A DNA stretch of 44,921 nucleotides from NCBI GenBank assembly GCA_027717925.1, contig JALLON010000001.1, positions 1 through 44,921 on the forward strand, in the 5' to 3' direction. The notes under the pieces are model-generated. The model did not search any database and was not told the DNA's origin. It saw only the letters and a program-made list of their open reading frames with translations. Origin of the DNA: Acidobacteria bacterium AH-259-G07 (GTDB taxonomy: Bacteria > Acidobacteriota > UBA6911 > RPQK01 > JADFOI01). Below are positions 1 through 44,921 of this stretch, piece by piece. The translations under genes were made by a program, and so were the position numbers. Positions within the stretch are counted from its first letter, which is position 1. Each line of letters begins with the position of its first letter.

Positions 1-2
1 CG

Positions 3-2747
3 GTGAGCTATCTGGGGTTTGATCGGGAGCGTCAGCAGCCGCTGGAGCGGGCGCTCTTTGAGCGGCCTCGGGGGCAGGAGCGGACGGTGCACCGGCTGAA
101 GGAGACGCTGGTGGGCGGCCAGGTGCGCTTTGTGAATGAAGAGCAGGAGAGACCCATCGGGGAGTTTTCGGCCTACTACGTGAGCCCGGGAAGGGGGCCG
201 CAGGGGATTGCCCAGCTGAGCTACACCGTCACCAACACAGAACCGGATAACCCCACGCTGGATCCGTTGGTCGAGTACATCCAGGGCCGGTTTCTGCCCG
301 ATGAGCGCTCCATCATGGTGGCTCTGCCAGAGGGCGCGCCCCGGAAGCCCAAAGTCTCCGAAATCGACAACCCTCTCCCCCTGGTCCATATTCTGATTCC
401 GTTCGAGTTCCGAGTGGAAAGACCGGGTGAGTACGAACGCTGGTACTCCTACACTTGGGAAAACTTCGACGGGGGGTTGGATGGCATCGTCATTGACCTT
501 CCGGCCTTGAGCGTGCGTCCGACCCATGGGGAGTATTTCCCCCTGAACATACAAATCAAGGATCCGCTGTGGATGGAGCGAAACCTGCTCGACTTCACCT
601 TTTCCTTGAAGGCGGGAGAACCCAAAAGGCTGTGGCTGGACACGCGGGACCGACTCCTTCCCAATGGCTACAGTTTTTATCTCACCATCGCCGGCGCCGG
701 TCCGGACTTCGGTGCCGATGCTCTGGAGGGGACCCGGATACACCTTGTTTTCAAGGAGCGCCGGCGAGCGCGAGCCGAACACGAAAAAGACCGTTTCACT
801 CAAGTGATCGACAACGTAGGCAATTTTCTGGAATGGGGGAGCAACAAGAAGCGGCTCAAGCTTTACGACCGCTACAGCCGGGACATTACCGATCTTCTGC
901 GGGTCAATCCGGATCATGTGCGGGGCCGTTATTACTGGAGCTATCTCAACACGGAACAACCCTGGCCGGCCTTTGAGCAGCGCCAGGCCCCAACCGATGT
1001 TCCCTTGTGGGCTTTTCGGCAGATTGAGTTGCTGAAGCTGTACCGGCAGTTCATCAACTGGTGGATTGACGAAAGACAGATCGAAAACGGGGAATTCGGG
1101 GGAGGGTTGTCCGATGACGGAGACCTGACGAATCTCTGGCCGGGAGCGGCTTTGATGGGAATTGATCCGGAGAAGATCACCCAATCGGTCCGCATCGAAA
1201 TGGATGCCTTTTACGACAACGGCATGTTCACCAATGGACTGAACACGATTTTGACGGATGCTCTTCACACCTACGAAGAGGGGATTCAAGTCTTGCCGCA
1301 GACGATGCTGCTGGAGTACGGGGACCCAAAGGTGGTGGAGCGGATCATGGCGACGGCCCAAGCGCTGGAGGGAATTACGGGGATTGACCAGTTCGGACAT
1401 CGTCACATCCGCTCCATGTATTTCAATGGGACGCAGATATCCGAGGACCCGGTTTGGGCAAGGGCCTACACGGACCGGTCCTACTTGATCCTGCAGCCGG
1501 GGCTGGTCCTGGTGGAGTACAACGGGCATCCGGCGCTCAAAAAGCTGCTGCTGGAGCTGGCGGATGGGCTGCTGGCGCATCGCAAGCAAGACCAAGAGGG
1601 GAATTACTATCTGCCGGCCGAGATTTCTTTTCCGAGCGGCGAGGGGCGTGGGCGGACTTTGGGTTCGGCGGCCCATCTGTTCTGGGCGGCCTGGCGATGG
1701 ACCGGCGATGAGAAGTACCTGTTGCCCATCACGGACCAAATCAAACCGGAAGATTTCGCGGTGCTGCGCTCTTTGAATGCCAATCTGATCGACTTGTTGG
1801 ACAAGCGCGAGACTTGGGGACAGACGATCTCCACGCTGGTCGACAGCGGCGCAAAGAATTACTTGTGGGAAAAGTACATTCGAGAGAGCCGTGCCTTCAA
1901 GTTTTACAAACATGTTGCCTGGCAGGTGACCGGAAAAGAGAGTTTTTTGGAAGAATACTACGCCGATCAGATTCAGGACACCTCCCAACGAATGGAAATG
2001 TTTACCGAAGATCACTGGTGGGTCGATCGAGTGGGTTTTCCCAGTGGAGAGCTACAACGATCTCGCCTTGGAGGGGTAGCGCTTCTTCGGGGTAGGATTT
2101 ATCCTGGACACGTTATCAGCTGGAAGTTCAAGGAACCCGCCAGGGCGGAAAGTGTGGCCATCCTGGTACCTCAAGCCACGCCCACAGCCGCCAATATTGT
2201 CGCCTTTAACCTTGAAAACGAACCGGTAACAGCAACCCTCACTGCCTGGGATCTCGATCCCGGAACCTGGGAAGTTACGGTGGGTGTTGACAACGACGGC
2301 GATGACACTGCCGACAGCTTGAGCCGCAAGGAAACCATCCGGCTGCAGCGGACAGAACAGCTGGAACTGGTTCTCGAGCCCAAGGTAAGTACGATCGTTC
2401 AGTTAAACCTCAAATCCAGGGCCAGTGCGCTCTGGGGCCGGCCGGATCTGGGTATTGGCCGGGAGGATGTGAAGGTGGAGGGCAGCCAGGTTACGGTCAC
2501 GATCCACAGTCTGGGTTCGGTGGATGCACCACGTACTTCAGTGGCACTAAGGGATCCGTCCGGACAGATCGTCGCTACTGCTCCTGTCCCCGCCCTGAAA
2601 GCGCCCCTGGATCTTCTGCCGAAATCGGCCACAGTGACGCTTGCAGCGCCGGGAGGTACGAATCTGAGTGGCTATAACATCCGTGTCGACCCTGAAAATG
2701 AAATCGAGGAGATTACCACTCGCAATAACATTGTAAGTCTCCCTTGA
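3..2747 (+). CDS. Large hypothetical protein, 5'-partial (probably continues upstream of the window); helical-repeat body with a C-terminal CARDB-like beta-sandwich domain
   Basis: ORF track 3..2747. The GTG at 3 is only the first in-frame start-like codon; there is no signal peptide or RBS, so the gene probably runs off the 5' edge. The last ~90 aa (VTVTIHSLGSVDAP...YNIRVDPENEIEEITTRNN) fit the CARDB pattern VDPxNxIxE..NN. An internal TGDEKYL helical motif recurs in the other glycan-active enzymes here. A 9-nt gap to the next gene suggests co-transcription. Confidence 0.45.
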   Translation: MSYLGFDRERQQPLERALFERPRGQERTVHRLKETLVGGQVRFVNEEQERPIGEFSAYYVSPGRGPQGIAQLSYTVTNTEPDNPTLDPLVEYIQGRFLPDERSIMVALPEGAPRKPKVSEIDNPLPLVHILIPFEFRVERPGEYERWYSYTWENFDGGLDGIVIDLPALSVRPTHGEYFPLNIQIKDPLWMERNLLDFTFSLKAGEPKRLWLDTRDRLLPNGYSFYLTIAGAGPDFGADALEGTRIHLVFKERRRARAEHEKDRFTQVIDNVGNFLEWGSNKKRLKLYDRYSRDITDLLRVNPDHVRGRYYWSYLNTEQPWPAFEQRQAPTDVPLWAFRQIELLKLYRQFINWWIDERQIENGEFGGGLSDDGDLTNLWPGAALMGIDPEKITQSVRIEMDAFYDNGMFTNGLNTILTDALHTYEEGIQVLPQTMLLEYGDPKVVERIMATAQALEGITGIDQFGHRHIRSMYFNGTQISEDPVWARAYTDRSYLILQPGLVLVEYNGHPALKKLLLELADGLLAHRKQDQEGNYYLPAEISFPSGEGRGRTLGSAAHLFWAAWRWTGDEKYLLPITDQIKPEDFAVLRSLNANLIDLLDKRETWGQTISTLVDSGAKNYLWEKYIRESRAFKFYKHVAWQVTGKESFLEEYYADQIQDTSQRMEMFTEDHWWVDRVGFPSGELQRSRLGGVALLRGRIYPGHVISWKFKEPARAESVAILVPQATPTAANIVAFNLENEPVTATLTAWDLDPGTWEVTVGVDNDGDDTADSLSRKETIRLQRTEQLELVLEPKVSTIVQLNLKSRASALWGRPDLGIGREDVKVEGSQVTVTIHSLGSVDAPRTSVALRDPSGQIVATAPVPALKAPLDLLPKSATVTLAAPGGTNLSGYNIRVDPENEIEEITTRNNIVSLP

Positions 2748-2756
2748 CAACTTGAA

Positions 2757-4304
2757 TTGAATCCTACAATGGCTCCCAAAACCCGTGCTAAGGAAGTTTC
2801 AATAAACTGGCGAAATCGGTGCGCAAAGATTGTGTTCATGGCCGTTTTCGTTGTGCATTCTGCGCTGGCGACATGGGCGGCACCAACACGAAAAGAGGTG
2901 CTGGCAGCCATGAAGACGGCAACCGACTTCATGATGAATACGGTTTCGACGAGAGGCGGGTTTGTCCAGAAGTACTCACTGGATCTCAAAGAAAAATACG
3001 GTGAACTCAAGGCTCGTGACTCCATGATCTGGGTCGAACCCCCTGGTACACCAACCGTGGGGCTCATGCTGATTGAAGCCCACCGTACAACCAACGACGC
3101 CCAGTACCTGGAGTACGCCGACCGCGTCGCCGGCGCACTGATTTGGGGACAGCTGCCATCCGGAGGCTGGCACTACTTCATCGATTTCGATATGGAGGGT
3201 GTCCAGAAGTACTACGATGAGTTCCTGTCACAGAGTTGGGGCTGGGAGGAATACTACCACTACTACGGTAATGGGACCTTTGACGATGATACCACGGCGT
3301 CCGCCACACGTTTTCTGCTCAGACTATACGCGACGACCCTAGATCCGAAATACAAGAGCCCCCTGCTCAAAGCACTGGACTTTACTCTGGACGCCCAGTA
3401 CCCCAACGGGGCCTGGCCTCAACGCTACCCGCTCTCCCGCGAATTCCGCCATCATGGCCACCCGGATTACACTTCGTTTTACACCTTCAATGATGGCGTC
3501 ATCTCAAACAACGTTGGTGCCCTGGTCGAAGCCTATGAAAAGCTTGGCGACAAAAAGTATTGGGAAGCCGCCCGCAGAGGAATGGATTTTTACATCCTCT
3601 CCCAGCTGCCCAGCCCTCAGACCGGATGGGCCCAGCAGTATGGCTTTGATATGAAGCCAGCCTGGGCTCGAAGCCAGGAGATGAATGCCGTCTCTTCCGG
3701 GCAAACCTTTCAAAACGTACGAGATCTGATGAACTTCTACCGGGTGACGGGGGATCGCAGATATCTGGAACCCATCCCGAAAGCCATTCGCTGGCTGGAG
3801 ACGGCACGTATCCCGGAAACGAACCGGCCCGGCGGCTATACACAGTTTTATGAACTCGGATCAAACCGGCCGGTCTACCAGAGACGAGAAGGAACTCCTC
3901 CCGATTTCCTGTGGGTGAAAACTTATGATGCCGCGGGGGTCTATCCGTTGGGTGTTCGGTTCGAGCTGGATGTGTCGGGCCTGGAGAGGGAGTTCCAGCA
4001 GGTTAGGAGCCTGTCGCCGTTGCAAGCTCGGTCTGAGTACGAACGAAGCAGAACCTATACCCACCCCAGGATTCAGCGTCCCGATCCCCTGGCCGACTAC
4101 CGGGTCCTGGCAAGAGACGCCGATGAGATCCGGCAGCTCATTGAGTCTCTGGACGAGAGGGGGGGATGGGTGGTCGAAACTCAGATGTCGGATCGAGAAG
4201 ATTTCATTAACAATCCTCCCCACAGATTCAAAGCCTACGATACAGGAACCTACGTGACACGCATGTACCGTTTGATCAATTATCTCAACTCCTTGAAACC
4301 TTAG
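2757..4304 (+). CDS. PL10 (PelA/Pel-15E family)-like polysaccharide lyase, exported; distal paralogue of the tandem trio at 38.3-43.5 kb
   Basis: Hydrophobic N-terminus (IVFMAVFVVHSALATWA). Motifs are colinear with the PL10/TIGR02474 consensus as I recall it: GTFDDDTTASATRFLLRLY (TIDNxAT..RFL), LDAQYPNGAWPQRYPL (QYPNGGWPQ.YP), YTFNDGVISNN (ITFNDDAM), and GWAQQY..MKPAWARSQE (W.QHD..P..AR.YE, carrying the catalytic Arg). Start is TTG at 2757 or ATG at 2769. Confidence 0.65.
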   Translation: MNPTMAPKTRAKEVSINWRNRCAKIVFMAVFVVHSALATWAAPTRKEVLAAMKTATDFMMNTVSTRGGFVQKYSLDLKEKYGELKARDSMIWVEPPGTPTVGLMLIEAHRTTNDAQYLEYADRVAGALIWGQLPSGGWHYFIDFDMEGVQKYYDEFLSQSWGWEEYYHYYGNGTFDDDTTASATRFLLRLYATTLDPKYKSPLLKALDFTLDAQYPNGAWPQRYPLSREFRHHGHPDYTSFYTFNDGVISNNVGALVEAYEKLGDKKYWEAARRGMDFYILSQLPSPQTGWAQQYGFDMKPAWARSQEMNAVSSGQTFQNVRDLMNFYRVTGDRRYLEPIPKAIRWLETARIPETNRPGGYTQFYELGSNRPVYQRREGTPPDFLWVKTYDAAGVYPLGVRFELDVSGLEREFQQVRSLSPLQARSEYERSRTYTHPRIQRPDPLADYRVLARDADEIRQLIESLDERGGWVVETQMSDREDFINNPPHRFKAYDTGTYVTRMYRLINYLNSLKP

Positions 4305-4361: not shown

Positions 4362-4853
4362 ATGAAACACTTCACAAACATCTGCTGTCTTTGGGCACTG
4401 CTCTTTATTGCCCTCCCCGGAACCTCACCTGCGGCGGCTCAAGAATGGTCAGCCGCGCAGAAGGAGGTCTTGGCGAGCATGGAAGCCTATGCCGCGGCTT
4501 GGGAGGGGGGAAATCAGGAAGAAATCGTGAGTTATCTTCACCCGGATTTTCACAGCTGGAACTTTGAAGAAGATTTTCCAAGGAGCCGACCTTCTGGAGA
4601 AAAAAAGATTGAGCTTTTTTTGCGAAAATATGACCTCATCTCAATGGAGCTGCGACCACTCGCTATTCAAGTCTTTGGCGACGCTGCAGTTGTCCACCTC
4701 TACTTTGAGGAAATCATGAGAGACTCCACAGGCACGCACACCAACAGCTCCGGCCGCTGGACCGTCAGCCTGCTCAAAGAGAACGGCAAGTGGGTTTTCA
4801 CCAGCTTTGCCTGGATCTCGACTGCACTGGTGCATGACTGGCCTCGACATTAG
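4362..4853 (+). CDS. Small exported SnoaL/NTF2-like (DUF4440-type) protein
   Basis: Signal peptide MKHFTNICCLWALLFIALPGTSPAAAQ. The size (~135 aa mature) and the C-terminal beta pattern (GRWTVSLLKENGKWVFTSFAW) are typical of NTF2-like/SnoaL folds. GGAG-like RBS (gacgggagaccatcATG). Confidence 0.4.
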   Translation: MKHFTNICCLWALLFIALPGTSPAAAQEWSAAQKEVLASMEAYAAAWEGGNQEEIVSYLHPDFHSWNFEEDFPRSRPSGEKKIELFLRKYDLISMELRPLAIQVFGDAAVVHLYFEEIMRDSTGTHTNSSGRWTVSLLKENGKWVFTSFAWISTALVHDWPRH

Positions 4854-4951: not shown

Positions 4952-7261
4952 ATGCTAAGACGGATCCACACGGTTGTCCATCTGGGCCTGCTCTTCGCGG
5001 TTACTGTCGTGGCGGCGGCCCAAGGGCAGGGTATCCAGGGGATGCCGGTTGTGGGCTACGCCGACCGGTTCAGTGTGCAGCCGAGTGAAATCATCCGATT
5101 CATGGTGAGTTGTGAGCTGCCGAAGTATCGTGCCGACATTGTGCGATTGATCCATGGTGACCCTAACCCGAAAGGACCGGGCTTCAAAGAGGAGGTCATC
5201 CAGGCGTCAACTAACAAGGAGTATCCAGGCCGGCACCAGGATTTGCGGAGTGGTTCGTACGTGATCGTGGCGGACAGCCGTCTCCTGCGACTGACCGGCA
5301 GTCTCACGCTGCAGGCCTGGATTACAGCAACTACGCCGCACAAGGGTGCGCAGGGGATCCTCACCAAATGGTCTGCCACTGACCGGCTGGGTTACGGACT
5401 GTTTCTGGACACGGATGGGAGCCTGGCGCTATGGCTGGGGGACGCAAACGGCCAAGTCGAGAAGGTGAGGACTGGTAAGTCCCTGCGGCCTTGGACTCCC
5501 GCCTCAGTCTATGCCGGGGGTCACCAGATGGTCAACTCGACGAGCTCGTATTTTGTGGCTGCCACGTTCGACGCGGAAAGTGGTGACGTGGCACTGTACC
5601 AGGAACCCGTTGTCAGCTGGCCTATGGACGAGAGCCGGGTGCTGACACAACGCTCGACCGCTGTGCGGTCGATAGGGCAGAGCGACGCTCCTTTTTTGAT
5701 GGCGGGCTTTTGGGAATGGCGGAGTACGGAAAGGATTGCGGTTGGTGGTCATTTCAATGGAAAGATTGAGAGCCCCCGGCTATTTGGCCGGGCCCTGACG
5801 AAAGACGAGATTCAGGCGCTCAGACAAGGCGGCAGCCCACAGGATCCGGTGGCCGCATGGGACTTTTCATTGGACATTTCCTCGCGGAAGGTCACGGACA
5901 CCTCCCCCAACAAGCTGAACGGGCAGACCGTCCACATGCCGGCACGGGCGATGACGGGATACGGTTGGACGGGACAGGAAACAGACTTCCAACAGGCTCC
6001 GGGGCAGTACGGCGCGATCTATTTTCATGACGATGATTTGGATGATGCTGGGTGGGAGGTCGACTTTGAACTTCAGATCCCGGAAAATCTGAAGAGCGGG
6101 GTGTATGCCGCACGCCTGCGAGCCGGCAACGGGGAGGACTACGTTCCATTCTTTGTGCGCCCCAGGAAAGGGACGTCCTCAGCCCGGATCGCCTTCCTGG
6201 TTCCGACGTTCAGTTATCTGGCCTACGGCAATTTTTTTGGGCCTGACGTTCCCGAGCTGTTGAGCCTTTACGATCAGCACTCCGATGGCAGCGGTGTCTT
6301 CTACGCGTCCCGGCTCCGCCCCATCCTCAATATGCGTCCCAATGGTCGAGAAACCTGGAAAGGTATCACTTTTCCACACCAGTTCAGCGCCGATCTGCAC
6401 TTGGTGGACTGGCTGGACGCCAAAGGTCACGAATACGACGTCATCACCGATGAAGACCTTCATTTTGAGGGGACAGCGTTGCTGGCGCCTTACAAGGTTG
6501 TCATCACAGGCTCCCATCCGGAGTACTGGTCAGGACAGATGCTGGATGGGCTTGAGAAGTACCTGCATCAGGGCGGGCGGCTGATGTATCTGGGCGGTAA
6601 CGGCTTCTACTGGGTGACTTCGATGGATCCGGAGCGCCGACACACCATTGAAGTCCGACGAAGAGACGGAACACAAATCTGGGAAGCCGCACCAGGCGAG
6701 TATCGCCACAGCACGACCGGTGAGGTTGGAGGGTTGTGGAGGTTTCGCGGTAGACCCCCACAGAAGCTGGTGGGTGTCGGCTTCACGGCGATGGGTCCCG
6801 AGGGAAGACCATTCCGACGCCAGCCCGGGAGTTTCGACCCCCGAGCAGCGTTCGTCTTTGAGGGGATTGGGCCAGATGAGCTGATTGGGGACTTTGCCAA
6901 CCTGGTCATGGAGTACGGAGCCGCCGGACAAGAAATTGACCGCTTCGACCATCTCCTGGGAACCCCGGCTCATGCTCTCCTGCTAGCTACGGCGTCCGGT
7001 TTTTCCGACGAATCCCAACATGTGGTAGAGGAGATGCTGCACTCGGATCCCCTGCAAGGAGGCACCACCAACCCGTGGGTCAGAGGAGACATGGTGTATT
7101 TCGAATATCCCAACGGTGGCGCGGTATTATCAGTGGGCAGCATCAACTGGTGCGGCAGTCTTTCCTACAATGGATACAACAACAACGTGTCTCAGATCAC
7201 TGATAACGTCTTGAAACAATTTGCCTCAGACGATCCGCTTTCAAGGTCGGCGGCCCAGTAG
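4952..7261 (+). CDS. N,N-dimethylformamidase large (beta) subunit-like protein (LamG-like N-terminal region + DMFase-type C-terminal domain), with signal peptide
   Basis: 769 aa, close to the size of DmfA2. Blocks colinear with DmfA2 as I recall it: IVRLIHGDPNPKGPGFKEEVI, QYGAIYFHDDDLDDAGWEVDFELQIPENLKSGVYAARLR, IAFLVPTFSYLAYGN, ITGSHPEYWS, YLGGNGFYW, NNNVSQITDNVLKQF. N-terminal signal peptide HLGLLFAVTVVAAAQGQG. Strong RBS (gggaggacatcctATG). Confidence 0.65.
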   Translation: MLRRIHTVVHLGLLFAVTVVAAAQGQGIQGMPVVGYADRFSVQPSEIIRFMVSCELPKYRADIVRLIHGDPNPKGPGFKEEVIQASTNKEYPGRHQDLRSGSYVIVADSRLLRLTGSLTLQAWITATTPHKGAQGILTKWSATDRLGYGLFLDTDGSLALWLGDANGQVEKVRTGKSLRPWTPASVYAGGHQMVNSTSSYFVAATFDAESGDVALYQEPVVSWPMDESRVLTQRSTAVRSIGQSDAPFLMAGFWEWRSTERIAVGGHFNGKIESPRLFGRALTKDEIQALRQGGSPQDPVAAWDFSLDISSRKVTDTSPNKLNGQTVHMPARAMTGYGWTGQETDFQQAPGQYGAIYFHDDDLDDAGWEVDFELQIPENLKSGVYAARLRAGNGEDYVPFFVRPRKGTSSARIAFLVPTFSYLAYGNFFGPDVPELLSLYDQHSDGSGVFYASRLRPILNMRPNGRETWKGITFPHQFSADLHLVDWLDAKGHEYDVITDEDLHFEGTALLAPYKVVITGSHPEYWSGQMLDGLEKYLHQGGRLMYLGGNGFYWVTSMDPERRHTIEVRRRDGTQIWEAAPGEYRHSTTGEVGGLWRFRGRPPQKLVGVGFTAMGPEGRPFRRQPGSFDPRAAFVFEGIGPDELIGDFANLVMEYGAAGQEIDRFDHLLGTPAHALLLATASGFSDESQHVVEEMLHSDPLQGGTTNPWVRGDMVYFEYPNGGAVLSVGSINWCGSLSYNGYNNNVSQITDNVLKQFASDDPLSRSAAQ

Positions 7262-10412: not shown

Positions 10413-11315
10413 TCAGGGCAAATAACGTGGAGAAACTCCGAAGATGAGTGTACACGGCCGATCCGAAGGATTGTAATACTGATGCCGTGTGCCCGCTGGA
10501 AGATAGACACCATCACCGGGTTTCACATCGAACCAGCGAGTCTGACCGCGCTCGTCCACTTTGTCCTCCGGGAGTCGCACGTGCAGGGCGCCTTCCAAGA
10601 GATAAAGACCAGCATCTCCCCCATGCGTGCGTATGTCTGTCTCCCGTCCAGGCAGCAACTTGATTCTGCCCACGGTTACATGGTCCGTGCTCACCAAGAT
10701 TCCAACCAGAACCTGGTTTTTTCCTCCTTCCAGTCGCCACAGAATGTCAGACTCGCGGACAACCTTCGTGCTAAAATTTCGATGAGCTTCCTGCTGGCTG
10801 TCAGGCCAGCGACCGATCCACTGATCCTGAGTGTATTTGGGACTCGATAGTTCCGGCTTCTCTGCGGGAGAAGGCTCGGACCGCGGCGGGATGTAGAATT
10901 CCAACACGCGCAGTGGCTCAGCGCCGTAACTGAAACCGTAATTCCATTTATTTCGACGCAGAAAGCCGGCTTCTCCCTGATTGACACGCTGTACCTCCCC
11001 GGTTTCCGGGTTGTTTAGCAGAAGGGTTCCGCTCAGAACATAGTAGACGGCATCCGTGGCAAACAGAGTCGGAAACCGATCCGAATGACGAAACACTTCC
11101 CCGGGGGCCATTCCATAGATCAGCTGATAAATATTGTCGCTCATGAAATAGAACGAATCGTGTACTTTTCCTGAGGTCTCGTCGCCCCACAAGACACGGG
11201 TTGTCTCCTGGAAGGGAATATGAGTCGGTTGATCGTAATGTTGAGCCTTGCCCAGCGAACACATAAACACAGTCTTTACCGCCAGGAGAACATAAAGTGA
11301 CTTACGAGCTTTCAT
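10413..11315 (-). CDS. Secreted bicupin protein (paralogue of 12699..13610)
   Basis: Signal peptide MKARKSLYVLLAVKTVFMCSLGKAQ. Two cupin barrels; the C-terminal one carries THGGDAGLYLLEG ... YLPAGTRHQYYN. Colinear with the other bicupin along its whole length (shared blocks VLSGTL..NNP..GE, ILWRLEG, LPG..TD...HGGD). Confidence 0.6.
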   Translation of the reverse strand: MKARKSLYVLLAVKTVFMCSLGKAQHYDQPTHIPFQETTRVLWGDETSGKVHDSFYFMSDNIYQLIYGMAPGEVFRHSDRFPTLFATDAVYYVLSGTLLLNNPETGEVQRVNQGEAGFLRRNKWNYGFSYGAEPLRVLEFYIPPRSEPSPAEKPELSSPKYTQDQWIGRWPDSQQEAHRNFSTKVVRESDILWRLEGGKNQVLVGILVSTDHVTVGRIKLLPGRETDIRTHGGDAGLYLLEGALHVRLPEDKVDERGQTRWFDVKPGDGVYLPAGTRHQYYNPSDRPCTLIFGVSPRYLP

Positions 11316-25701: not shown

Positions 25702-25716
25702 GCAAGGGCGTGTATT

Positions 25717-38218: not shown

Positions 38219-38274
38219 GAGCAAAGCATGCCAAGCCGATCTTTGGATGACTTCCAAGTGAGGGAGATTTGACC

Positions 38275-40203
38275 ATGAATTACCGTATTTTTTTCCGTCC
38301 TGGCCCCAGATTCCATCTGCCTTTGCCCGCTGTTTGGTCCTTTTTGATTTCAACCGTGTATTGCTTCTCGATTCCTGTTTGCGCGTCGGTCTGTCTACCG
38401 GCCGCCCCAGGGGAAAGGGAAGTTCTGGCGGCCATGAGAAAGGCGACCGACTTCATGATGAACCGGGTGTCGAGCCGGGGCGGATTTGTGTGGCATTACT
38501 CGGAGGATTTTTCCAGACAATGGGGCGAGGTACCGGCCCGGAAATCGCAGGTCTGGGTCCAGCCTCCCGGGAGCACACCCTCTGTGGGGATGATGCTCTT
38601 GGAAGCGTACGAAGTTAGAGGGGATGCCCAGTATTTGAAATATGCCGACAAGGTTGCGGGAGCTCTGATCTGGGGCCAACTGCCATCCGGAGGGTGGCAT
38701 TATTTCATCGACTTTGATGCGGCGGGAGTTCAGAAATGGTATCGGGAGGTGGCCTCCCAGTGCCGGGGCTGGGAGGAGTTTTACCATTACAACGGCAACG
38801 CCACTTACGATGATGACACCACGGCCAGCGCCACCCGCTTGTTGCTTCGGCTTTACGCCAGGACACTGGATCCCAAGTACCGGCCCTCGCTGCTGAAGGC
38901 GCTGGATTTCATACTGGAGTCGCAGTATCCGAACGGGGCCTGGCCGCAGCGCTATCCCCTGCGCTACGATTTTCCTCACGACGGGCACGCCGACTACACA
39001 TCTTTTTACACCTTCAACGACGGCGTGATCTCCAACAACATCGAGCTTCTTTTGGAAGCTTACGAGAAACTGGGGAACGAAGAGTATCGGAAGGCGGCTT
39101 ACCGCGGGATGGACTTTTACATTCTTTCGCAGCTTCCGTCTCCACAGGCCGGTTGGGCCCAGCAGTACGACATGGACCTGAGACCGGCCTCGGCGCGCTC
39201 CTACGAGCCGGCTGCACTGAACACATATCAGACAATGCGCAATATCAAAGACCTCGAGAACTTTTACCTGATTACGCGAGATCGGCGCTATCTGGAGCCA
39301 ATCCCGAAAGCCCTGCAGTGGCTCGAAGCATCTGTCATTAACACTGACCGGTCCCGTAACTTCACCCATGCGATCTATTATGAAATCGAAACGAACAAGC
39401 CTCTGTATCCCCACCACGAGCATCGTCGGAATTCGGAAGGAAAGTTGCAGATCGTCCGTTTCTGGGTGGATGGTCAATACACAGATGAACGGCCTTACAG
39501 CGCGCTGCCGCAAGTGGATCTTCAGGCGCTTCGGAGAGAGTTTGAACACGTTAGCGCTCTGACGCCTGAGGAAGCAGCCGCGGAGTACGGTCGAAGAAAG
39601 AAGGCTGACCCGACAGTTTCCACCACTGCCGAGGAGGTCAAGGAAATTCTCTCATCCCTGGACAGCCGCGGAGCCTGGGTCACCGATATTGAGTTCTTAG
39701 ACACTCTTGATTATGTCGATAATCCGCGCACCAGGTTTCGGGGCATTGACACCCGCACGTATGTTTCTAATATGCGGAAATTGGTCGCCTACCTTAGAGC
39801 AAGAGAGGATCAAGCCTTGAAGAGTGAGGGTCCTCAGGCCCGTTTGACCTTCATTGATCTTGCTGAAATCCCTATCAACGAACTGCTCCCAGGGGTGCGA
39901 ACGCGCACCCCGTACGGTGAAAACCTGATGTTCTCCTACGTAGAAATGGACGCGGGAACCGAGGTTCCTACCCATAGTCATCCTCACGAGCAGGGCGGTA
40001 TCTTGCTGGAAGGTCGTATTGAAATGACGATCGGTTTGCAAACCAGGGTGCTAGAACCCGGGGTGCTTTACCTGATTCCGCCCAACGTTCCGCACGCAGT
40101 ACTGACCGTTGGAGGGCCAGCCAAGATCCTTGACGTCTTCAGTCCAATAAGAGAGGACTATGCAAAGTTGGTGAACGAGTACATCAAGCAAGAAGACAGA
40201 TGA
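38275..40203 (+). CDS. PL10-like lyase paralogue fused to a C-terminal KdgF-like cupin domain (first of the tandem trio)
   Basis: The ATG at 38275 is preceded by GAGGGAG (8-nt spacer); the ORF-track TTG is at 38269. It carries the same PL10-type motifs as 2757..4304 (NATYDDDTTASATRLLLRLY, ESQYPNGAWPQRYPL, YTFNDGVISNN, GWAQQYDMDLRPASARSYEP). It has very high amino-acid identity to the third copy across the catalytic region, read by eye. It extends ~120 aa beyond the point where the other copies stop. Confidence 0.65.
   Translation: MNYRIFFRPGPRFHLPLPAVWSFLISTVYCFSIPVCASVCLPAAPGEREVLAAMRKATDFMMNRVSSRGGFVWHYSEDFSRQWGEVPARKSQVWVQPPGSTPSVGMMLLEAYEVRGDAQYLKYADKVAGALIWGQLPSGGWHYFIDFDAAGVQKWYREVASQCRGWEEFYHYNGNATYDDDTTASATRLLLRLYARTLDPKYRPSLLKALDFILESQYPNGAWPQRYPLRYDFPHDGHADYTSFYTFNDGVISNNIELLLEAYEKLGNEEYRKAAYRGMDFYILSQLPSPQAGWAQQYDMDLRPASARSYEPAALNTYQTMRNIKDLENFYLITRDRRYLEPIPKALQWLEASVINTDRSRNFTHAIYYEIETNKPLYPHHEHRRNSEGKLQIVRFWVDGQYTDERPYSALPQVDLQALRREFEHVSALTPEEAAAEYGRRKKADPTVSTTAEEVKEILSSLDSRGAWVTDIEFLDTLDYVDNPRTRFRGIDTRTYVSNMRKLVAYLRAREDQALKSEGPQARLTFIDLAEIPINELLPGVRTRTPYGENLMFSYVEMDAGTEVPTHSHPHEQGGILLEGRIEMTIGLQTRVLEPGVLYLIPPNVPHAVLTVGGPAKILDVFSPIREDYAKLVNEYIKQEDR
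39841..40200 (+). other. Single-barrel cupin domain (KdgF-like) forming the C-terminal extension of the 38275 gene
   Basis: RLTFIDLAEIPINELLPGVRTRTPYGENLMFSYVEMDAGTEVPTHSHPHEQGGILLEGRIEMTIGLQTRVLEPGVLYLIPPNVPHAVLTVGGPAKILDVFSPIREDYAKL. Both cupin metal motifs are present (HxHxxxQ/E and PxxxPH). The D.FSP.R.DY tail resembles small KdgF-type cupins. Confidence 0.65.
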
Positions 40204-40249: not shown

Positions 40250-41905
40250 ATGAAGAGGAATGAACTTATTCTCCAGCTTAACCATTCCTTTGCCTTGTAC
40301 AGAAACGCTGTGACCTTCCGTCTACTAAGACCACTTTTTGTTCTGACGGTCTTGTTTTTGAACTTTCATTGGACGGCGTCAGGCGCACCGCCCACGAAAA
40401 CGGAAGTTCTAGCCGCCATGAGAAAAGCGACCGATTTTATGATGAACAGGGTCTCGAACCGCGGGGGATTTCTGTGGCATTACTCCGAGGACCTCTCTCA
40501 GGGGTGGGGTGAAGTCCCAGCGCGCAAGTCCCAAATCTGGGTACAACCTCCCAGCACTCCCACCGTGGGCAGGATGCTTTTGGCTGCTTATGAAGCTACC
40601 GGTGATCGCCAGTACCTGGAACACGCCGAGAAAGTGGCTGGCGCTCTCATCTGGGGACAACACCCTTCGGGAGGATGGCACTATTTCATCGATTTTGACA
40701 TGTCCGGGGTTCGTCACTGGTATCGCGAGGAGGCCTCCCGGTGGCGGGGATGGGAGGAATTCTACCACTACTACGGCAACTGTACGTATGATGATGACAC
40801 CACCACCAGCCCCACTCAGTTTCTCCTTGAGCTTTATATAACGACACTGGATCCAAAGTATAGGAAGCCGCTGTTCAAAGCCCTGGGTTTTATCCTCCAA
40901 TCGCAGTATCCCAATGGTTCCTGGCCGCAGCGCTACCCCCTGAGCCGCGAGTTTCCGTTCGAAGGCCGGCCCGATTACACTTCGTACTACACCTTTAATG
41001 ACGATGTGACCTCTAATAATATCTATCTTCTCCTGAAAGCCTACGAGAAATTGGGAGACGAAAAGTACCTGAAAGCTGCTCGCAGAGGAATGGACTTTTA
41101 CATTCTTTCGCAGTTGCCCAGTCCTCAGGCGGGATGGGCAACACAGTATGACATGGATATGAAACCAGCCTGGGGCCGTAGTTATGAACCTGCCGCTGTC
41201 TGTTTGGATCAAACAATCGGGAATATTGAGGACCTTGAAAACTTCTATCGAATCACTGGCGATAAAAGATATCTTGAACCCATTTCGAGAGCCATTGAGT
41301 GGCTCGAGTATTCAGTTATCAACACTGATCCTTCCAAGGATTTCACGCACGCAAATTTTTGTGAAGTGGGAACCAACAAGCCGCTGGTTATTCATCATGA
41401 ACATCGAAGGCGCCCAGACGGGAAACTGGGAATTGTCCGGTATTGGGTTGATTCCGAGCTAGGAGAGGAGGCTGCTATTGAAAGAGAGATGCCCGTAAGT
41501 GCAAGCGAAAGGGCGACCGGATACCACTTAGGAATTGAATTCCAAGATTCTCACTTCAAAACCTTTTCACCCAGCAGAATAGATATCGAGGCTATGAAAA
41601 AGCGGTTGAAAGAATATCTCACCGTGCCTTTTGCCGAAATTCGCACCAGGCACGGGAAGGGAATCGAGAGACCGATGCGATTCTCCGACCGGCGAGCCAA
41701 AGCGAGGGCGGATTCTGAAGGACTGCAGGAACTCATCTCGTCGATGGACGCGCGAGGCGCTTGGCTTACAGAGATCGAGTTCCTGGACAAGTTTGATTTC
41801 ACGCATAACCCGCCGACACGGTTTCGGGGAATCGATACGGGTACCTATGTGTCGAATATGTACAAGCTGATTAATTTTTTGAAATCAAACTCAGAGAAAA
41901 AGTAA
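40250..41905 (+). CDS. PL10-like lyase paralogue (second of the tandem trio), exported
   Basis: Same motif set (NCTYDDDTTTSPTQFLLELY, QSQYPNGSWPQRYPL, YTFNDDVTSNN, GWATQYDMDMKPAWGRSYEP). Hydrophobic N-terminal segment LRPLFVLTVLFLNFHWTASGA. Carries the shared C-terminal module GAWLTEIEFLDKFDFTHNPPTRFRGIDTGTYVSNMYKLINFL. Confidence 0.65.
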   Translation: MKRNELILQLNHSFALYRNAVTFRLLRPLFVLTVLFLNFHWTASGAPPTKTEVLAAMRKATDFMMNRVSNRGGFLWHYSEDLSQGWGEVPARKSQIWVQPPSTPTVGRMLLAAYEATGDRQYLEHAEKVAGALIWGQHPSGGWHYFIDFDMSGVRHWYREEASRWRGWEEFYHYYGNCTYDDDTTTSPTQFLLELYITTLDPKYRKPLFKALGFILQSQYPNGSWPQRYPLSREFPFEGRPDYTSYYTFNDDVTSNNIYLLLKAYEKLGDEKYLKAARRGMDFYILSQLPSPQAGWATQYDMDMKPAWGRSYEPAAVCLDQTIGNIEDLENFYRITGDKRYLEPISRAIEWLEYSVINTDPSKDFTHANFCEVGTNKPLVIHHEHRRRPDGKLGIVRYWVDSELGEEAAIEREMPVSASERATGYHLGIEFQDSHFKTFSPSRIDIEAMKKRLKEYLTVPFAEIRTRHGKGIERPMRFSDRRAKARADSEGLQELISSMDARGAWLTEIEFLDKFDFTHNPPTRFRGIDTGTYVSNMYKLINFLKSNSEKK

Positions 41906-41970
41906 CGTCATCGAGGCAAGTTAAGCTTTTACTTTTGTCCATTATAAGTTGGTCCATCCCTCAGATTGGC

Positions 41971-43452
41971 ATGTCTCTTCTAGTTGAGAGGATTTTTTTA
42001 ATTTGCACGGTCTTTCTCTTTCTGAGTTTCATGCCTGTGGGCTTTGGGGCAGCACCGACGGAGAAAGAAGTTCTCGAAGCCATGAAAAGGGCGACCGATT
42101 TCATGATGAATACCGTCTCCAACCGGGGAGGATTTCTGTGGCACTACTCCGAAGACTTTTCCAAACAATGGGGGGAGGTTCCGGCGCGCAAATCCCAAAT
42201 CTGGGTCCAACCTCCTGGTAGCACACCCTCAGTGGGGATAATGCTCCTGGAAGCCTATGAAGTCACCGGGGATCTCCAGTACCTGAGATATGCCGAAAAA
42301 GTAGCGGGAGCCCTCATCTGGGGTCAGCTTCCTTCGGGAGGATGGCACTATTTCATTGACTTTGATACGGCGGGAGTTGAGAAATGGTATGAGGAGGTAG
42401 CCTCCCAGTGCCGGGGTTGGGAGGAGTTTTACCATTACTACGGCAACGCCACCTACGATGATGACACGACGACCAGTGCCACCCGCTTTTTGCTTGGACT
42501 TTACGCGAGAACTTTAGATCCCCAATATCGGCCGTTTCTTTTGAAGGCGCTGGCTTTCATTCTGGAGTCGCAGTATCCGAACGGTGCCTGGCCCCAGCGC
42601 TATCCCCTGCGCTACGATTTTCCCCACGACGGCCATGCCGATTATACGTCCTTTTACACGTTCAATGACGGGGTGATCTCGAACAATATTGATCTTCTTC
42701 TGGAAGCGTACGAGAAACTGGGGGACGAAGGGTACAGGAAGGCGGCTTACCGGGGGATGGACTTTTACATTCTATCGCAGCTGCCGACTCCTCAGGCGGG
42801 ATGGGCTCAGCAGTATGACATGGACATGAAACCGGCCTGGGCGCGTTCTTACGAGCCAGCTGCACTGAACACGCATCAGACCGCGCGGAACATAAAAGGC
42901 CTTGAGAACTTCTACCTGATTACGGGAGATCGCCGCTATCTGGAACCGATCCCGAAAGCTCTTCAATGGCTTGAAGCGTCTGTGATTAACATGGATCCTA
43001 CAAAGCAATTCACACATGCGACTTTTTATGAAGTACAAACCAACAGACCGCTTTACGCCCATCACGAAGTACGGGACGGAAAAATTGTCAGCTATCGAGT
43101 CGATTACGAGGAATTCGATTTACCATATTACGGCGGACGCCGGAATATAGAAATCATCGCGCTCAAGAAAGAATTCCAAACGGTTAGCGCCTTAGAACCT
43201 GAAGAAGCCAGGGCTGATTACCGCAAGCGAAGGCAATCGGCGCAAGCCGTTCTCAAAGTGGAGCCCCTAGAGGTGGAGAAGCTCATTGGCTCGACGGACA
43301 AAAGAGGCGCATGGGTCACAGAAATCAAGTTCCTTGACACGGACAATTACGCGGATAATCCTCAGATAGAATTTCGTGGGATCGATACCCAAACCTACAT
43401 TTCCAATATGTATGCACTGATCAATTTCTTGAAAACATCTAAAGAGAGATAG
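41971..43452 (+). CDS. PL10-like lyase paralogue (third of the tandem trio), exported
   Basis: The ORF-track TTG is at 41935. The ATG at 41971 gives a conventional signal peptide, MSLLVERIFLICTVFLFLSFMPVGFGA. Motifs NATYDDDTTTSATRFLLGLY, ESQYPNGAWPQRYPL, YTFNDGVISNN, GWAQQYDMDMKPAWARSYEP. Stretches of its nucleotide sequence align to the first tandem copy with few mismatches. Confidence 0.65.
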   Translation: MSLLVERIFLICTVFLFLSFMPVGFGAAPTEKEVLEAMKRATDFMMNTVSNRGGFLWHYSEDFSKQWGEVPARKSQIWVQPPGSTPSVGIMLLEAYEVTGDLQYLRYAEKVAGALIWGQLPSGGWHYFIDFDTAGVEKWYEEVASQCRGWEEFYHYYGNATYDDDTTTSATRFLLGLYARTLDPQYRPFLLKALAFILESQYPNGAWPQRYPLRYDFPHDGHADYTSFYTFNDGVISNNIDLLLEAYEKLGDEGYRKAAYRGMDFYILSQLPTPQAGWAQQYDMDMKPAWARSYEPAALNTHQTARNIKGLENFYLITGDRRYLEPIPKALQWLEASVINMDPTKQFTHATFYEVQTNRPLYAHHEVRDGKIVSYRVDYEEFDLPYYGGRRNIEIIALKKEFQTVSALEPEEARADYRKRRQSAQAVLKVEPLEVEKLIGSTDKRGAWVTEIKFLDTDNYADNPQIEFRGIDTQTYISNMYALINFLKTSKER

Positions 43453-43479
43453 AAGAATCACGGCTCTCGGACGAATCAT

Positions 43480-44090
43480 GTGAAAAAGATTTATTTGATT
43501 GGGGCTTTCTTCCTGACTTGTTGCTCAACTGGTTTTCTTTTGCAACATCCACTGATGCGAATCTTGCGCGGGTTATGCCCAAGAAATTGGAGCGACCTTA
43601 TCTCCATTTTACAAGTGAAGACATCCGGGCCATGAGAGAGAGACTTCTCGTCGAGGCGAACCGGCTCTTGGATATGCCGGTGTCCCGGGAAGTGCCGGCC
43701 AGATACGTGGGACCCAGCCCCTACTATGAAGGTTGGCGTGATGCTTACGAGCTCTACTTTCGGGCCCTGGGTAGAAACTGCTACAACCTTGCATTTATTT
43801 ATCAGATGACCGGAGATGAGAAGTACGCTCAGAAAGCGTACGAGTTCGCCGAGGCTCTCAGTGTGCTGGACAGCTGGGTTTACACGGGTGAGAAGTTTGC
43901 AGCGCTCTACTGGATGGGCAAGCCCTATGGAGTTAAATGGAATAAAGAGGAGGACAACGAGATCGTCTATTCGTACGATCTGAGTGCGTCTCGTCTCGGA
44001 TTGCCCGTCCGTGGAGGACCTTTATTTGGACCTCATGGTGAACTGGCTGTTTTTGAGTTGGGGCCGAACGCCTTGAGGTGATTCGTCTGA
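43480..44090 (+). pseudogene. 5' relic of a heparinase II/III-like paralogue (frameshifted signal peptide, internal deletion, truncated after ~200 codons)
   Basis: ORF 43518..44081 aligns with residues ~35-195 of the intact gene at 13813..15942 (MPKKLERPYLHFTSEDIRAMRERL / LLDMPVSREVP / LAFIYQMTGDEKYAQKAYEFAEALSVLDSWV / YWMGKPYGVKWNKEEDNEIVYSYDL). It lacks the ~18 aa VRTDPRAEVVYQRLLKEC. A signal-peptide-like reading (V)KKIYLIGAFFLTCCSTGF starts at the GTG at 43480 in another frame, which implies a frameshift near 43531-43542. Similarity fades after YSYDLSAS. Confidence 0.75.
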
Positions 44091-44145
44091 ACCTGTGAGC
44101 ACACAGAATGCTAAAAGGCATGCAAAGTCAGAGTTCAGGGGAAAT

Positions 44146-44921
44146 CATGCAAAGAACAAAGCCGTGGAGTTTCAAAGTTGTCGTGGCATTAATGTTCGAG
44201 ATGTTCGCACTCGGGGCGTGTTCCACCTTGGACGAGTCCTTGAAAGCGCCGACGGGCGGGCCGACAATTGCCCTCGCTTCTCCCGTGATTGTCACGACTG
44301 GCCCACCGAACGTGATGCGCTGGGGTTTCTACCAGTTTCCGGATATGTGGCGAGCGCCCGGAGGAAAGTTGTACCTGTCAATGAACGTTGGTGAAGATAA
44401 TTCGATTGTTGGAGAACATCGTCCGACGCAGTTCTTTGTCTCAAGCGATCAGGGTCAGTCCTGGCAGCCGATCCGGCACGATCAGGTGGACTTTTCGCCA
44501 GATATCTATACATTGCCAAACGGGCAGCAAGTGGCGTTCGGCAAGGGGAAGTTCGTTTATCATTTCTCGTCACTCAGTCCGAGCGCTCGCGAAGAGTATT
44601 CGCTGGAGGATTTGGGACTGAAGCCGGTCATGACATTTATGGACGGGTGGGAGTATTCGGTGTACGCATATTACCGTTACGCCGACCTGCCCGAGGAGCT
44701 TCGGCGAATTCCAATGTTACGACGAGCAGGCCCAGACGCTCCCTGGAGACGAGAATATGCCACCATAGAACCTTCGGACTTGCTGTTTTCGGCGGGCATT
44801 CGGTCTTTGGATGACAGCTGGGAGTGGCACAATGTGCCACCGAAGGTGAGTAACCCTGTCTTCTCGCCCCAGCGGGTCGTTGTACTGCCGGATGAAACAT
44901 TGCTGTGGGTTCACTCCACAC
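44146..44921 (+). CDS. BNR/Asp-box repeat (sialidase-like beta-propeller) lipoprotein, 3'-partial; NOT in the supplied ORF track
   Basis: My own translation from the ATG at 44146 (RBS AGGGGA, 5 nt upstream) is open for 258 codons to the window end: MQRTKPWSFKVVVALMFEMFALGACSTLDES...FFVSSDQGQSWQPIRHDQ... It has a lipobox-like ALGAC and an Asp-box SSDQGQSW (44440-44463). It is missing from the track only because no stop codon lies inside the window. Confidence 0.6.

Follow-up and report, generated by a model that had tools for sequence, protein, structure and literature searches.

A TonB-dependent receptor-centred island with an unusually broad set of exported enzymes, very probably for an acidic glycan

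How far can the processing of a uronate-containing glycan proceed outside the cytoplasm? The question was raised by a 44,921-bp stretch of DNA (the window), an entire contig in which listing of open reading frames (ORFs), translation and start-codon inspection gave 29 credible genes and one relic (Table 1). Because the window is the whole contig and g1 and g30 sit at its ends, both of these genes are truncated. The gene content points to an island centred on a TonB-dependent receptor (TBDR) and resembling the CUT loci (SusD-less TBDR loci for carbohydrates) and polysaccharide utilization loci (PULs). This island, probably acidobacterial, very probably serves the use of an acidic, uronate-containing glycan; Acidobacteriota metagenome-assembled genomes were the nearest named relatives of several of its products. 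Its exported enzyme set is unusually broad for a CUT/PUL-like locus and is drawn from large uncharacterised exported subfamilies.

Export signals and receptor

The initial annotation had estimated that about 20 of about 30 products carry an export signal or a membrane anchor, and this estimate held. By heuristic, by eye and by orthologue comparison, 20 of 29 products were classed as exported or anchored (Sec, Tat or lipoprotein signal, or anchor). Two others are polytopic transporters, one of the sodium:solute symporter family (SSF) and one of the major facilitator superfamily (MFS), and five are cytoplasmic, namely the ACT-domain protein, the LacI-family regulator, the aldehyde dehydrogenase (ALDH), RidA and the alpha/beta hydrolase. 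The N-terminus of g1 is missing, hence it was left out of these classes. The home-made heuristic asked for three features: positive charge in the n-region, a hydrophobic core free of charges (9 aa or longer, mean Kyte-Doolittle value 2.0 or higher) and a small-x-small site; the signal calls rest on it and on comparative evidence. It was positive in 18 of the 27 products with complete N-termini, the SSF and MFS transporters included. Four products were accepted by eye beyond the heuristic. The g5 protein has the Tat motif SRRDFGRL, which is identical in its orthologue on contig L010 and reads SRRDFARI in that on L090 (both contigs come from other samples; see below). The g7 protein begins with MKARK followed by a hydrophobic core, and its L006 orthologue has a clean signal peptide. 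The g8 protein has a CpaB/FlgA-like N-terminal anchor, its SAF matches lying under the NCBIfam cut-offs, and g30 has a lipobox. Among controls, the heuristic picked out 3 of the 63 HpcH homologues of the classical cytoplasmic type and none of the five cytoplasmic island proteins, in agreement with the earlier view that only these five remain in the cytoplasm.

Comparison with orthologues gave a consistent picture. In 10 orthologue pairs the first 22–45 residues were 9–33% identical as against 56–73% in the remainder, while the signal regions stayed hydrophobic; in the control pairs, RidA and the hydrolase, the N-termini were 80–88% identical. Low N-terminal next to high mature identity is the signature expected of cleavable signal peptides. 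Moreover, similarity among the four PL10 paralogues (PL, polysaccharide lyase family) restarted at the mature A(P)PT.KEVLAAM, right behind the hydrophobic stretch, and g4 aligned to the crystal sequence of N,N-dimethylformamidase (DMFase) from residue 31 on, leaving a 27-aa signal. Better downstream starts, which could have explained the signals away, were not available for g17 and g23: neither has an alternative start that retains the conserved core yet removes the signal. The possibility that the signals are artefacts of mis-called starts was rejected, since orthologues retain them and the conserved cores start directly after them. Judged from these N-terminal comparisons, the export signals of the island are real. 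If 30% of products are assumed to be exported as background, the probability of at least 20 out of 29 is 2e-5; an export enrichment of such size is normal for glycan-utilisation loci.

A TBDR without a SusD partner had been annotated, and this was borne out for g24. The protein also matches TonB_dep_Rec_b-barrel and has orthologues in L005 (72% identity) and L090 (55%). No ORF of the window matched SusD_RagB, no gap could hold such a gene, and the downstream neighbour of g24 is the convergent g25. To our knowledge, Acidobacteriota are without SusD. Pfam searches also found none of the KduI, KduD, KdgK and KdgA families among the ORFs of the window, as the initial annotation had stated. In gene content the island matches a CUT locus: the TBDR g24, five lyases, an MFS and an SSF transporter and a LacI regulator.

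SusD-less TBDR loci for carbohydrates, including a predicted pectin locus, were described as CUT loci in Xanthomonas campestris (Blanvillain et al., 2007; PMC1790865). As outlined there, the pectin locus shares with the island a TBDR without SusD, degradative enzymes, an inner-membrane transporter and a regulator. Its enzymes, according to the same outline, are a pectin methylesterase and a pectate lyase, whereas the island encodes extended PL10-like and PL35-like lyases. The CUT loci belong to another phylum and, so far as they are outlined there, have another receptor type than the CarboxypepD_reg plus OMP_b-brl_4 type of the island, and the parts of that paper that describe them mention no exported aldolase, cupin, FAH or DMFase-type enzymes. 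The Bacteroidota PULs for alginate, pectin and glycosaminoglycans (GAGs), e.g. the alginate PUL of Bacteroides eggerthii (PMC11381880), share signal-bearing periplasmic lyases, an MFS importer for monomers and a cupin in the locus. In contrast to them, the island lacks SusD as well as KduI, KduD, KdgK and KdgA, exports its cupin by fusion to a lyase (theirs has no signal peptide) and adds exported HpcH, bicupin and amidase genes. The first annotators knew of no described system with this layout. The literature search likewise returned none, nor any relevant paper on acidobacterial PUL-like loci, but SusD-less TBDR sugar loci as such have been known as CUT since 2007.

Exported enzymes

The PL10 and heparinase calls of the initial annotation cleared their profile thresholds. 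All four PL10-like proteins (g2 and g26 to g28) matched Pec_lyase (PF09492) with 86–91 bits against a cut-off of 22, and g10 matched Hepar_II_III_C with 40.5 against 24 bits. The PL10-like proteins, of about 490–550 aa, are distant kin of the solved PL10 enzymes, Cellvibrio Pel10A (1GXM) and Azospirillum PelA (1R76). They share PF09492 and the motif arginine with these, whereas the scores reach only 30–39 bits (g27: 38.7 bits to 1R76 and 30.1 bits to 1GXM, with the arginine motif (A/G)RxYEP aligned) and the island proteins carry an N-terminal extension of about 170 aa. In 30 aligned sequences of the PL10-like set R310, E313, N250, D251 and W225-R228 were invariant, and the NDD, WPQ and (A/G)RxYEP motifs are kept in the island proteins. 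The parent subfamily holds at least 1817 clusters, uncharacterised and named "pectate lyase" by NCBI. A Pfam census of 104 ORFs around PL10-like genes at 23 loci met many esterases (BD-FAE, Abhydrolase_3, COesterase, GDSL) as well as GH88, pectinesterase, GH43 and SusC/D, so that the wider family sits, by its predicted neighbours, in a pectin-type context. The four island proteins are thus predicted lyases, for which the family context suggests beta-elimination of polygalacturonate.

The fifth lyase, g10, shares Hepar_II_III_C with the PL35 enzymes, newly described broad-spectrum GAG lyases (PMC12088678, PMC11262172). It aligned over about 400 residues with 8KHW (104.6 bits, residues 187–586, E=4e-29), and also matched 8KHV (87.9 bits) and 9O3Q, a 'PL35 chondroitinase' (72 bits). 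These are its nearest, though distant, predicted relatives. The relic g29 is a 187-codon ORF without signal and without catalytic domain, and no continuation was found in any frame. On contigs L006 and L008 an intact PL35-like gene stands behind the PL10 genes, where the window has this relic.

Two exported HpcH/HpaI aldolases had been annotated. Both g17 and g23 are signal-bearing members of the family, but only g17 has the full catalytic set. The g17 protein matched 3QZ6, 1DXE, 2V5J and 2VWS at 123–131 bits and, in the family alignment, retains H45, R70, E149 and D175; it shares fold, Pfam family and these four catalytic residues with HpaI, GarL and YfaU/RhmA (2V5J, 1DXE, 2VWS), from which both island proteins differ by their signal peptides. 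Its best NCBIfam match was HpaI with 160 bits, under every equivalog cut-off. The signal of g17 follows a strong ribosome-binding site, and its orthologues P0002, P0003, P0004, P0007 and P0010 likewise have signals; in its nearest clade (52–65% identity) a clear signal is seen in five proteins and absent from several others. A contig search with g17 led to one distant Chloroflexia locus (32% identity). In g23 (PDB 4MF4, 109 bits; signal MKPFEKLSPFAFFVFLFAFALPPTLAQ) the R70 position is occupied by Ala, as opposed to Arg in 159 of about 175 aligned family members. The g23 orthologue in L007 (74% identical) also has Ala there, while Arg70 is kept in a 57% paralogue in L007 and in the 62% orthologue in L090. 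From these residues, g17 is the only credible aldolase of the pair, and g23 probably has another role or none. HpcH-fold genes also lie 3–12 bp upstream of PL10-like genes in L006 (7362–8387) and L008 (3–974). Their products carry H45Y and R70N and keep both metal ligands; they probably represent a neofunctionalised, conserved exported protein coupled to the lyases.

Export is not confined to the HpcH-like proteins of the island. An exhaustive search of the g23 family gave 167 cluster representatives at E<=1e-30, and 74 of the 150 nearest were positive by the heuristic. On a tree of the 159 N-terminally complete members 25 changes of signal state were counted, as against a mean of 53 and a minimum of 43 in 200 label shuffles. 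This clustering indicates that HpcH export is clade-structured and no annotation artefact. The literature search brought up no relevant report of bacterial HpcH aldolases that are exported.

A comparable situation was met with g4, the annotated homologue of the DMFase large subunit, which was confirmed by a colinear match of 526 bits to 6LVB. A second colinear match was the N-acetyl-(R)-beta-phenylalanine acylase 8I5A (421 bits). The Tyr-Tyr-Glu(+His) iron site is kept (equivalents of Y399, Y440, H519 and E521), whereas g4 differs from both enzymes by its 27-aa signal peptide, the lack of a detected small subunit and its place in a glycan island. The small upstream protein g3, confirmed as NTF2-like, is no such partner by similarity: it matched no DMFase chain in the PDB at E<=1, and no g3 homologue stands beside the g4 homologues in contigs L088 and L089. 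The DMFase-like family holds at least 3932 clusters, with signals in 60 of the 119 nearest (58–70% identity); the signal-less proteins inspected begin at M(E/K)IVGYADR. No relevant paper on DMFase with signal peptides was found in the literature search. Exported HpcH-like and DMFase-like groups are common in soil and sediment metagenomes. The earlier claim that usually cytoplasmic families are exported here therefore holds as to the signals, but such export is not special to the island.

The surroundings of g4 homologues were varied. In L088 (1–14814) two Peptidase_S15 (CocE/NonD-type) genes are interspersed among five full or partial DMFA2_C genes, of which two also encode LamG; from its gene content this contig appears to be a paralogue-rich amidase cluster with no tie to lyases. 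In L089 (2572–14052) a DMFase-like gene occurs with UxuA (mannonate dehydratase), a short-chain dehydrogenase/reductase gene, two BNR_2 genes, a true sulfatase-family gene and an SSF gene; the DMFase-like family is therefore also tied to the use of acidic or sulfated glycans.

The C45 Ntn hydrolase g5 (147.5 bits against 85) and the bicupins g7 and g9 were likewise confirmed. In the C-terminal barrel of g7 and of its L006 orthologue two of the four usual metal ligands are missing (R/T-H and Ala replace the first His and Glu), whereas H-x-H...E...H is intact in g9, so that only one bicupin is likely to bind metal classically. The g9 protein had weak matches only, to OxdC and gentisate dioxygenase, and its AlphaFold model from a 3-sequence alignment was unusable (pLDDT 40.4).

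Finally, the cupin domain of g26 had been called KdgF-like, which did not stand. CelOCE is a cupin related to KdgF and BacB that cleaves cellulose oxidatively (PMC11946906). The g26 domain shares the single Cupin_2 barrel and the H-x-H...Q/E...H motif with CelOCE (9BWF) and KdgF (5FPX, 5FQ0), but it is fused to a lyase, and among solved structures it comes nearest to the uncharacterised 4E2G (107 bits), with 55.6 bits to CelOCE, 51 to BacB and 37 to KdgF. Compared with canonical systems, in which KdgF is a free cytoplasmic protein, the only small cupin of the island is this C-terminal domain of a signal-bearing protein. The same lyase-cupin fusion was found in L007 (P0108).

Recurrence in relatives and possible roles

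Seven contigs from other samples carry the gene set of the island in rearranged order (L001, L005, L006, L007, L008, L010 and L090; Table 1). The order RidA-MFS-HpcH-hydrolase is kept in L001, L002 and L007, and the FAH hydrolase, HpcH-like protein and bicupin of L006 all have signals. That the same 9–10 families recur in differing orders on seven contigs argues for selection on clustering and not for frozen synteny. The predicted association is lineage-restricted and confined to close relatives. The co-conservation that the initial annotation called for was thus found in near relatives, including HpcH-like and C45 genes adjoining PL10-like genes, but not in the wider PL10-like family. Genes of the FAA_hydrolase family, a further normally cytoplasmic C-C hydrolase family with no copy in the window, were seen in L006 (6078–7160, with a signal-like N-terminus) and L090 (8335–9612, signal-like after an internal Met).

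On the reading that we favour, the five signal-bearing lyases (four PL10-like, one PL35-like) would cleave the glycan on the cell surface or within the periplasm and small products would cross the inner membrane via g16 (MFS) and g11 (SSF), while the LacI regulator, the ALDH, RidA and the C-C-hydrolase-like enzyme would remain cytoplasmic. We further suggest, tentatively, that exported enzymes other than the carbohydrate-active ones may process the lyase products in the periplasm. The candidates are the g26 cupin, the bicupins g7 and g9, the aldolase g17 and, in relatives, the exported FAH hydrolase. Characterised members of those exported families need metal or no cofactor, not ATP, NAD(P) or CoA, and the sole NAD-dependent enzyme of the island, the ALDH g14, is predicted to lie inside the cell. 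Canonical systems place their lyases in the periplasm, and their KdgF has no signal peptide (PMC11381880), so that the unsaturated monomer would form before it enters the cytoplasm. Once freed by lyase action, the 4,5-unsaturated uronate would open to 4-deoxy-5-keto-uronate. The GarL, HpaI and YfaU aldolases act on 4-hydroxy-2-keto acids, the class to which this compound belongs, and a periplasmic retro-aldol reaction by g17 is therefore chemically reasonable. The aldolase would split the keto-uronate into pyruvate and a C3 aldehyde, to be imported and then oxidised by the ALDH, and the amidases g4 (DMFase-like) and g5 (C45) would strip amide-linked substituents. In its fullest form, this scheme is a cofactor-free periplasmic branch that turns unsaturated uronates into pyruvate and small aldehydes or acids, bypasses the NADH- or ATP-dependent KduI-KduD-KdgK-KdgA route and leaves only C3 compounds to be imported; we consider this form doubtful. 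If periplasmic processing is true, uronate catabolism would have a layout not seen before, and the exported HpcH-like (167 representatives around g23) and DMFase-like (at least 3932 clusters) subclades would gain a first assigned role.

Several results weigh against the favoured reading and its periplasmic extension. The g26 cupin scores higher against CelOCE than against KdgF, and no KduI similarity of the bicupins was detectable by sequence. Several of the lyase-linked 'aldolases' are unlikely to be classical because g23 and the L006/L008 proteins are without the catalytic Arg, the latter two also without the His. For the wider PL10-like family, 26 metagenome loci reached 8 kb or more in length, and a single one of them, L008, contained an HpcH gene. 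Exported proteins of the HpcH-like and DMFase-like kinds appear to belong to large uncharacterised exported subclades that are spread over other contexts. No GH88 or GH105 gene was found in the island. Lastly, UxuA in L089 implies that the lineage has the classical uronate route, which may coexist.

Part of this evidence fits another explanation, in which the exported cupins, HpcH-like proteins and amidases are accessory enzymes acting on the polymer, with monomer catabolism in the cytoplasm and encoded elsewhere in the genome. Their roles could be CelOCE-like oxidative cleavage, removal of amide, acyl or pyruvyl substituents or, for dead HpcH-like proteins, carbohydrate binding. The CelOCE-leaning scores of the g26 cupin, its fusion to a lyase in two lineages, the esterases around the wider PL10-like family, the retained iron site of g4 and the C45 amidase type of g5 all agree with it, as does the fact that g23 and the L006/L008 proteins lost catalytic residues yet were kept near PL10 genes. 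It accounts less well for g17, which has the full aldolase machinery and lies in an operon with an acid-sugar MFS transporter, RidA and a C-C hydrolase; moreover, the literature search found no HpcH-fold enzyme acting on polymers, and we know of FAH-family hydrolases and HpcH aldolases on small keto acids only. We regard accessory roles of this kind as possible, though not probable.

Alternatively, the island could be a mosaic of independent exported modules without a common substrate (the lyases; the DMFase-like gene; FG-GAP/TPR/HpcH; the RidA-MFS-HpcH operon), all common near TBDRs in the lineage, their co-location reflecting shared descent and many paralogues. The size of the exported HpcH-like and DMFase-like families and their unrelated contexts, the 1-in-26 count and the transposase-rich loci of the relatives are in line with this, and the co-conserving contigs are fairly close kin (51–81% protein identity to the island). 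A mosaic is nevertheless unlikely given the recurrence of the families in differing order, the tight 3–12 bp gaps between HpcH-like and PL10 genes, and the ALDH (81%) and ProX-like lipoprotein (64%) that travel along. A periplasmic, meta-cleavage-like breakdown of humic- or lignin-derived aromatic or enol-keto compounds, in which a bicupin would act as ring-cleaving dioxygenase, an FAH or meta-cleavage-product hydrolase would cleave C-C bonds, the last steps would fall to an HpaI-type aldolase and an HpaE-type ALDH and the lyases would be bystanders, is very unlikely: the top-ranking NCBIfam matches of g17 (HpaI), the ALDH (HpaE, 385 bits) and g18 (HsaD/BphD), the gentisate dioxygenase and OxdC similarity of g9 and the FAH hydrolase near the bicupin and HpcH genes in L006 and L090 speak for it, but the HpaI, HpaE and HsaD/BphD matches are far under the equivalog cut-offs, ring-hydroxylating enzymes, an extradiol dioxygenase and a hydratase are lacking, the tightest linkages are to the PL10-like and PL35-like lyases, and the MFS transporter g16 is of acid-sugar type.

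The receptor-centred island for an acidic glycan does not depend on where the lyase products are processed. Even read conservatively, it provides a reproducible gene set (PL10-like, PL35-like, TBDR, HpcH, bicupin, C45, ALDH and ProX-like) that can serve as a guide to finding the substrate of the extended PL10-like subfamily and the way in which Acidobacteriota harvest acidic glycans.

Gene map and further observations

The genes are arranged in modules. On the plus strand g1 to g4 encode the giant LamG/CARDB protein, a PL10-like lyase, the NTF2-like protein and the DMFase-like protein. The minus-strand module g10 to g5 comprises six exported proteins with gaps of 27–202 bp (PL35-like, bicupin, SAF-anchored, bicupin, unknown family, C45). 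The plus-strand genes g11 to g13 (SSF, ACT, LacI) are followed by g14 (ALDH) on the minus strand, and the plus-strand module g15 to g18 (RidA, MFS, HpcH, alpha/beta hydrolase) by g20 (ProX-like lipoprotein) on the same strand. An operon on the minus strand, g23-g22-g21 (HpcH-like, TPR, FG-GAP/ASPIC), precedes g24 (TBDR, plus) and g25 (sulfatase-fold plus TPR, minus). The plus-strand module g26 to g30 closes the window with the PL10-cupin fusion, two PL10-like lyases, the lyase relic and a lipoprotein.

Table 1. Predicted features of the window, with coordinates, and gene content of the seven related contigs ("vs" introduces a cut-off; percentages are identities).
Feature	Position	Strand	Product or content	Support
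g1	3..2747	+	LamG/CARDB surface protein, C-terminal 914 aa, 5' end cut	CARDB 26 bits
g2	2757..4304	+	extended PL10-like lyase, most diverged copy, Sec signal	Pec_lyase 91 bits vs 22; probable ATG 2769
g3	4362..4853	+	small exported NTF2-like (DUF4440/SnoaL)	DUF4440 31 bits vs 25.2; signal MKHFTNICCLWALLFIALPGTSPAAAQ
g4	4952..7261	+	exported DMFase large-subunit homologue (LamG + DMFA2_C), Sec	DMFA2_C 333.6 bits
g5	7267..8427	-	C45 autoproteolytic Ntn acyltransferase/hydrolase, Tat-type	NF040521 147.5 vs 85; AAT 53.7 bits
g6	8556..10343	-	exported 595-aa protein, no family	signal MKRSVLLTLLLVVAAGG
g7	10413..11315	-	exported bicupin	Cupin_2 56 bits; 58% identical L006 orthologue with signal
g8	11379..12671	-	membrane-anchored SAF protein, C-terminal GLSQG motif	Pfam SAF, ChapFlgA
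g9	12699..13610	-	exported bicupin	Cupin_2 75.8 bits in two stretches; Cupin_3
g10	13813..15969	-	heparinase II/III-like, nearest PL35, Sec signal	Hepar_II_III_C 40.5 vs 24; probable ATG 15942
g11	16472..18142	+	sodium:solute symporter, inner membrane	SSF 145 bits; TIGR00813 174 bits
g12	18238..18822	+	cytoplasmic ACT-domain protein	ACT_6 35.8 bits; start set at codon 149
g13	18877..19965	+	LacI-family regulator	LacI, Peripla_BP_3, Peripla_BP_1
g14	20017..21492	-	cytoplasmic NAD(P)-dependent ALDH	Aldedh 523 bits; L090 orthologue 81%
g15	21961..22359	+	RidA, first of RidA-MFS-HpcH-hydrolase operon	Ribonuc_L-PSP 103 bits
g16	22501..23775	+	ACS-family MFS (ExuT/galactonate/glucarate-type)	TIGR00893 284 vs 395; MFS_1 193.6 bits
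g17	23885..24733	+	exported HpcH/HpaI class II aldolase, full catalytic set	PF03328 123 bits vs 25
g18	24895..25701	+	cytoplasmic alpha/beta hydrolase, meta-cleavage-product C-C type	Abhydrolase_1 73 bits
g20	26527..27618	+	ProX/OpuAC-type lipoprotein	NF008334 ProX 402.7 bits vs 215
g21	27690..29459	-	exported FG-GAP/UnbV_ASPIC, last of g23-g22-g21 operon	FG-GAP_3 165, UnbV_ASPIC 65 bits
g22	29462..30850	-	exported TPR protein	Pfam TPR; 46% identical orthologue adjoins g23 orthologue in L007
g23	30952..31938	-	exported HpcH/HpaI-fold protein, R70 to Ala	Pfam 90 bits vs 25; probable ATG 31887
g24	32618..35851	+	TBDR, CarboxypepD_reg + OMP_b-brl_4 type	OMP_b-brl_4 394, CarboxypepD_reg 78 bits
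g25	35963..37927	-	exported sulfatase-fold + TPR	Sulfatase 136 bits; TPR
g26	38269..40203	+	PL10-like lyase + C-terminal single-barrel cupin, signal	Pec_lyase 88.9, Cupin_2 56.5 bits
g27	40250..41905	+	PL10-like lyase, Sec signal	Pec_lyase 88.9 bits
g28	41935..43452	+	PL10-like lyase, Sec signal	Pec_lyase 85.6 bits; probable ATG 41971
g29	43518..44081	+	relic, N-terminal 160 aa of second PL35-like lyase	63% identical to g10 30-193
g30	44108..44920	+	lipoprotein with one Asp-box, 3' end cut	lipobox LGAC
L001			TBDR; RidA-MFS-HpcH(signal)-hydrolase; heparinase-like; sulfatase-TPR	
L005			TBDR 72%; PL10; LamG giant (60% to g1); PL35-like 68%; FG-GAP	
L006			C45; TBDR; bicupin 58%; FAH hydrolase (signal); HpcH-like (signal); 2-3 PL10; PL35-like	
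L007			FG-GAP; four HpcH; RidA-MFS-HpcH-hydrolase; TPR; PL10-cupin fusion; PL10	
L008			HpcH-like; PL10; PL10; PL35-like; PL10	
L010			C45 (61%) adjoining PL10	
L090			bicupin; C45 54%; ALDH 81%; TBDR 55%; FAH; two PL10; ProX-like 64%; two HpcH with signals	

Among the transporters and cytoplasmic enzymes, g16 had been annotated as ExuT-like. It belongs to the galactonate/ExuT-type ACS subfamily, but its score lies under the family cut-off. The ALDH g14 reaches no equivalog cut-off, HpaE being among its top NCBIfam matches, and g18 matched HsaD (120 bits) and BphD (99 bits), both under the cut-offs.

The annotation of g25 as sulfatase-like was correct for the fold only. Direct reading of the sequence gave ITLPSHASILTG (T-L-P-S-H) at the C/S-x-P-x-R position. 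The Thr and the His of this motif are as in phosphotransferase/phosphodiesterase members of the alkaline-phosphatase superfamily, and g25 is, on this reading of the motif, probably not a sulfatase. The BNR assignment of g30 was not upheld, as the protein has a single sub-threshold Asp-box (E=0.059, 13.8 bits against 27); no match above threshold in PDB, Pfam or NCBIfam and no homologue in the fetched loci of relatives was found. No Pfam, NCBIfam or PDB match was obtained for g6, and its single-sequence AlphaFold model was unusable (pLDDT 31.8). The C-terminal domain of g8 matched no family in PDB, Pfam or NCBIfam (best Abhydrolase_2 at E 0.25). The g1 protein aligned along its entire length, at 60% identity, with the C-terminal portion of a LamG protein of 1326 aa in L005 (11808–15788), which follows a TBDR and a PL10 gene. 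As in the window, L007 has an FG-GAP gene behind an HpcH-like gene.

The lipoprotein g20 was first viewed as an unrelated passenger, a view revised since it is co-conserved in L090 (13226–14314), where a 64% identical orthologue lies beside PL10 genes. No ABC permease or ATPase partners for g20 were found nearby, so that this lipoprotein of the glycine-betaine-binding type is an orphan that has been kept together with lyases.

Rfam gave no match at gathering thresholds in the whole window. The 825-bp interval between g18 and g20 (25702–26526) contains only two overlapping ORFs of 111 and 150 codons, the longer one without a Pfam match, and may be non-coding or a decayed gene. A promoter/terminator scan of 20–33 kb gave 13 matches, not above the 9.6 +/- 3.5 of shuffled sequences. 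The best sigma-70-like match of this region (21795–21824, plus strand; TTGACA, 18-nt spacer, TACATT, extended TG) is situated some 140 bp ahead of RidA and would fit a single promoter for the RidA-MFS-HpcH-hydrolase operon.

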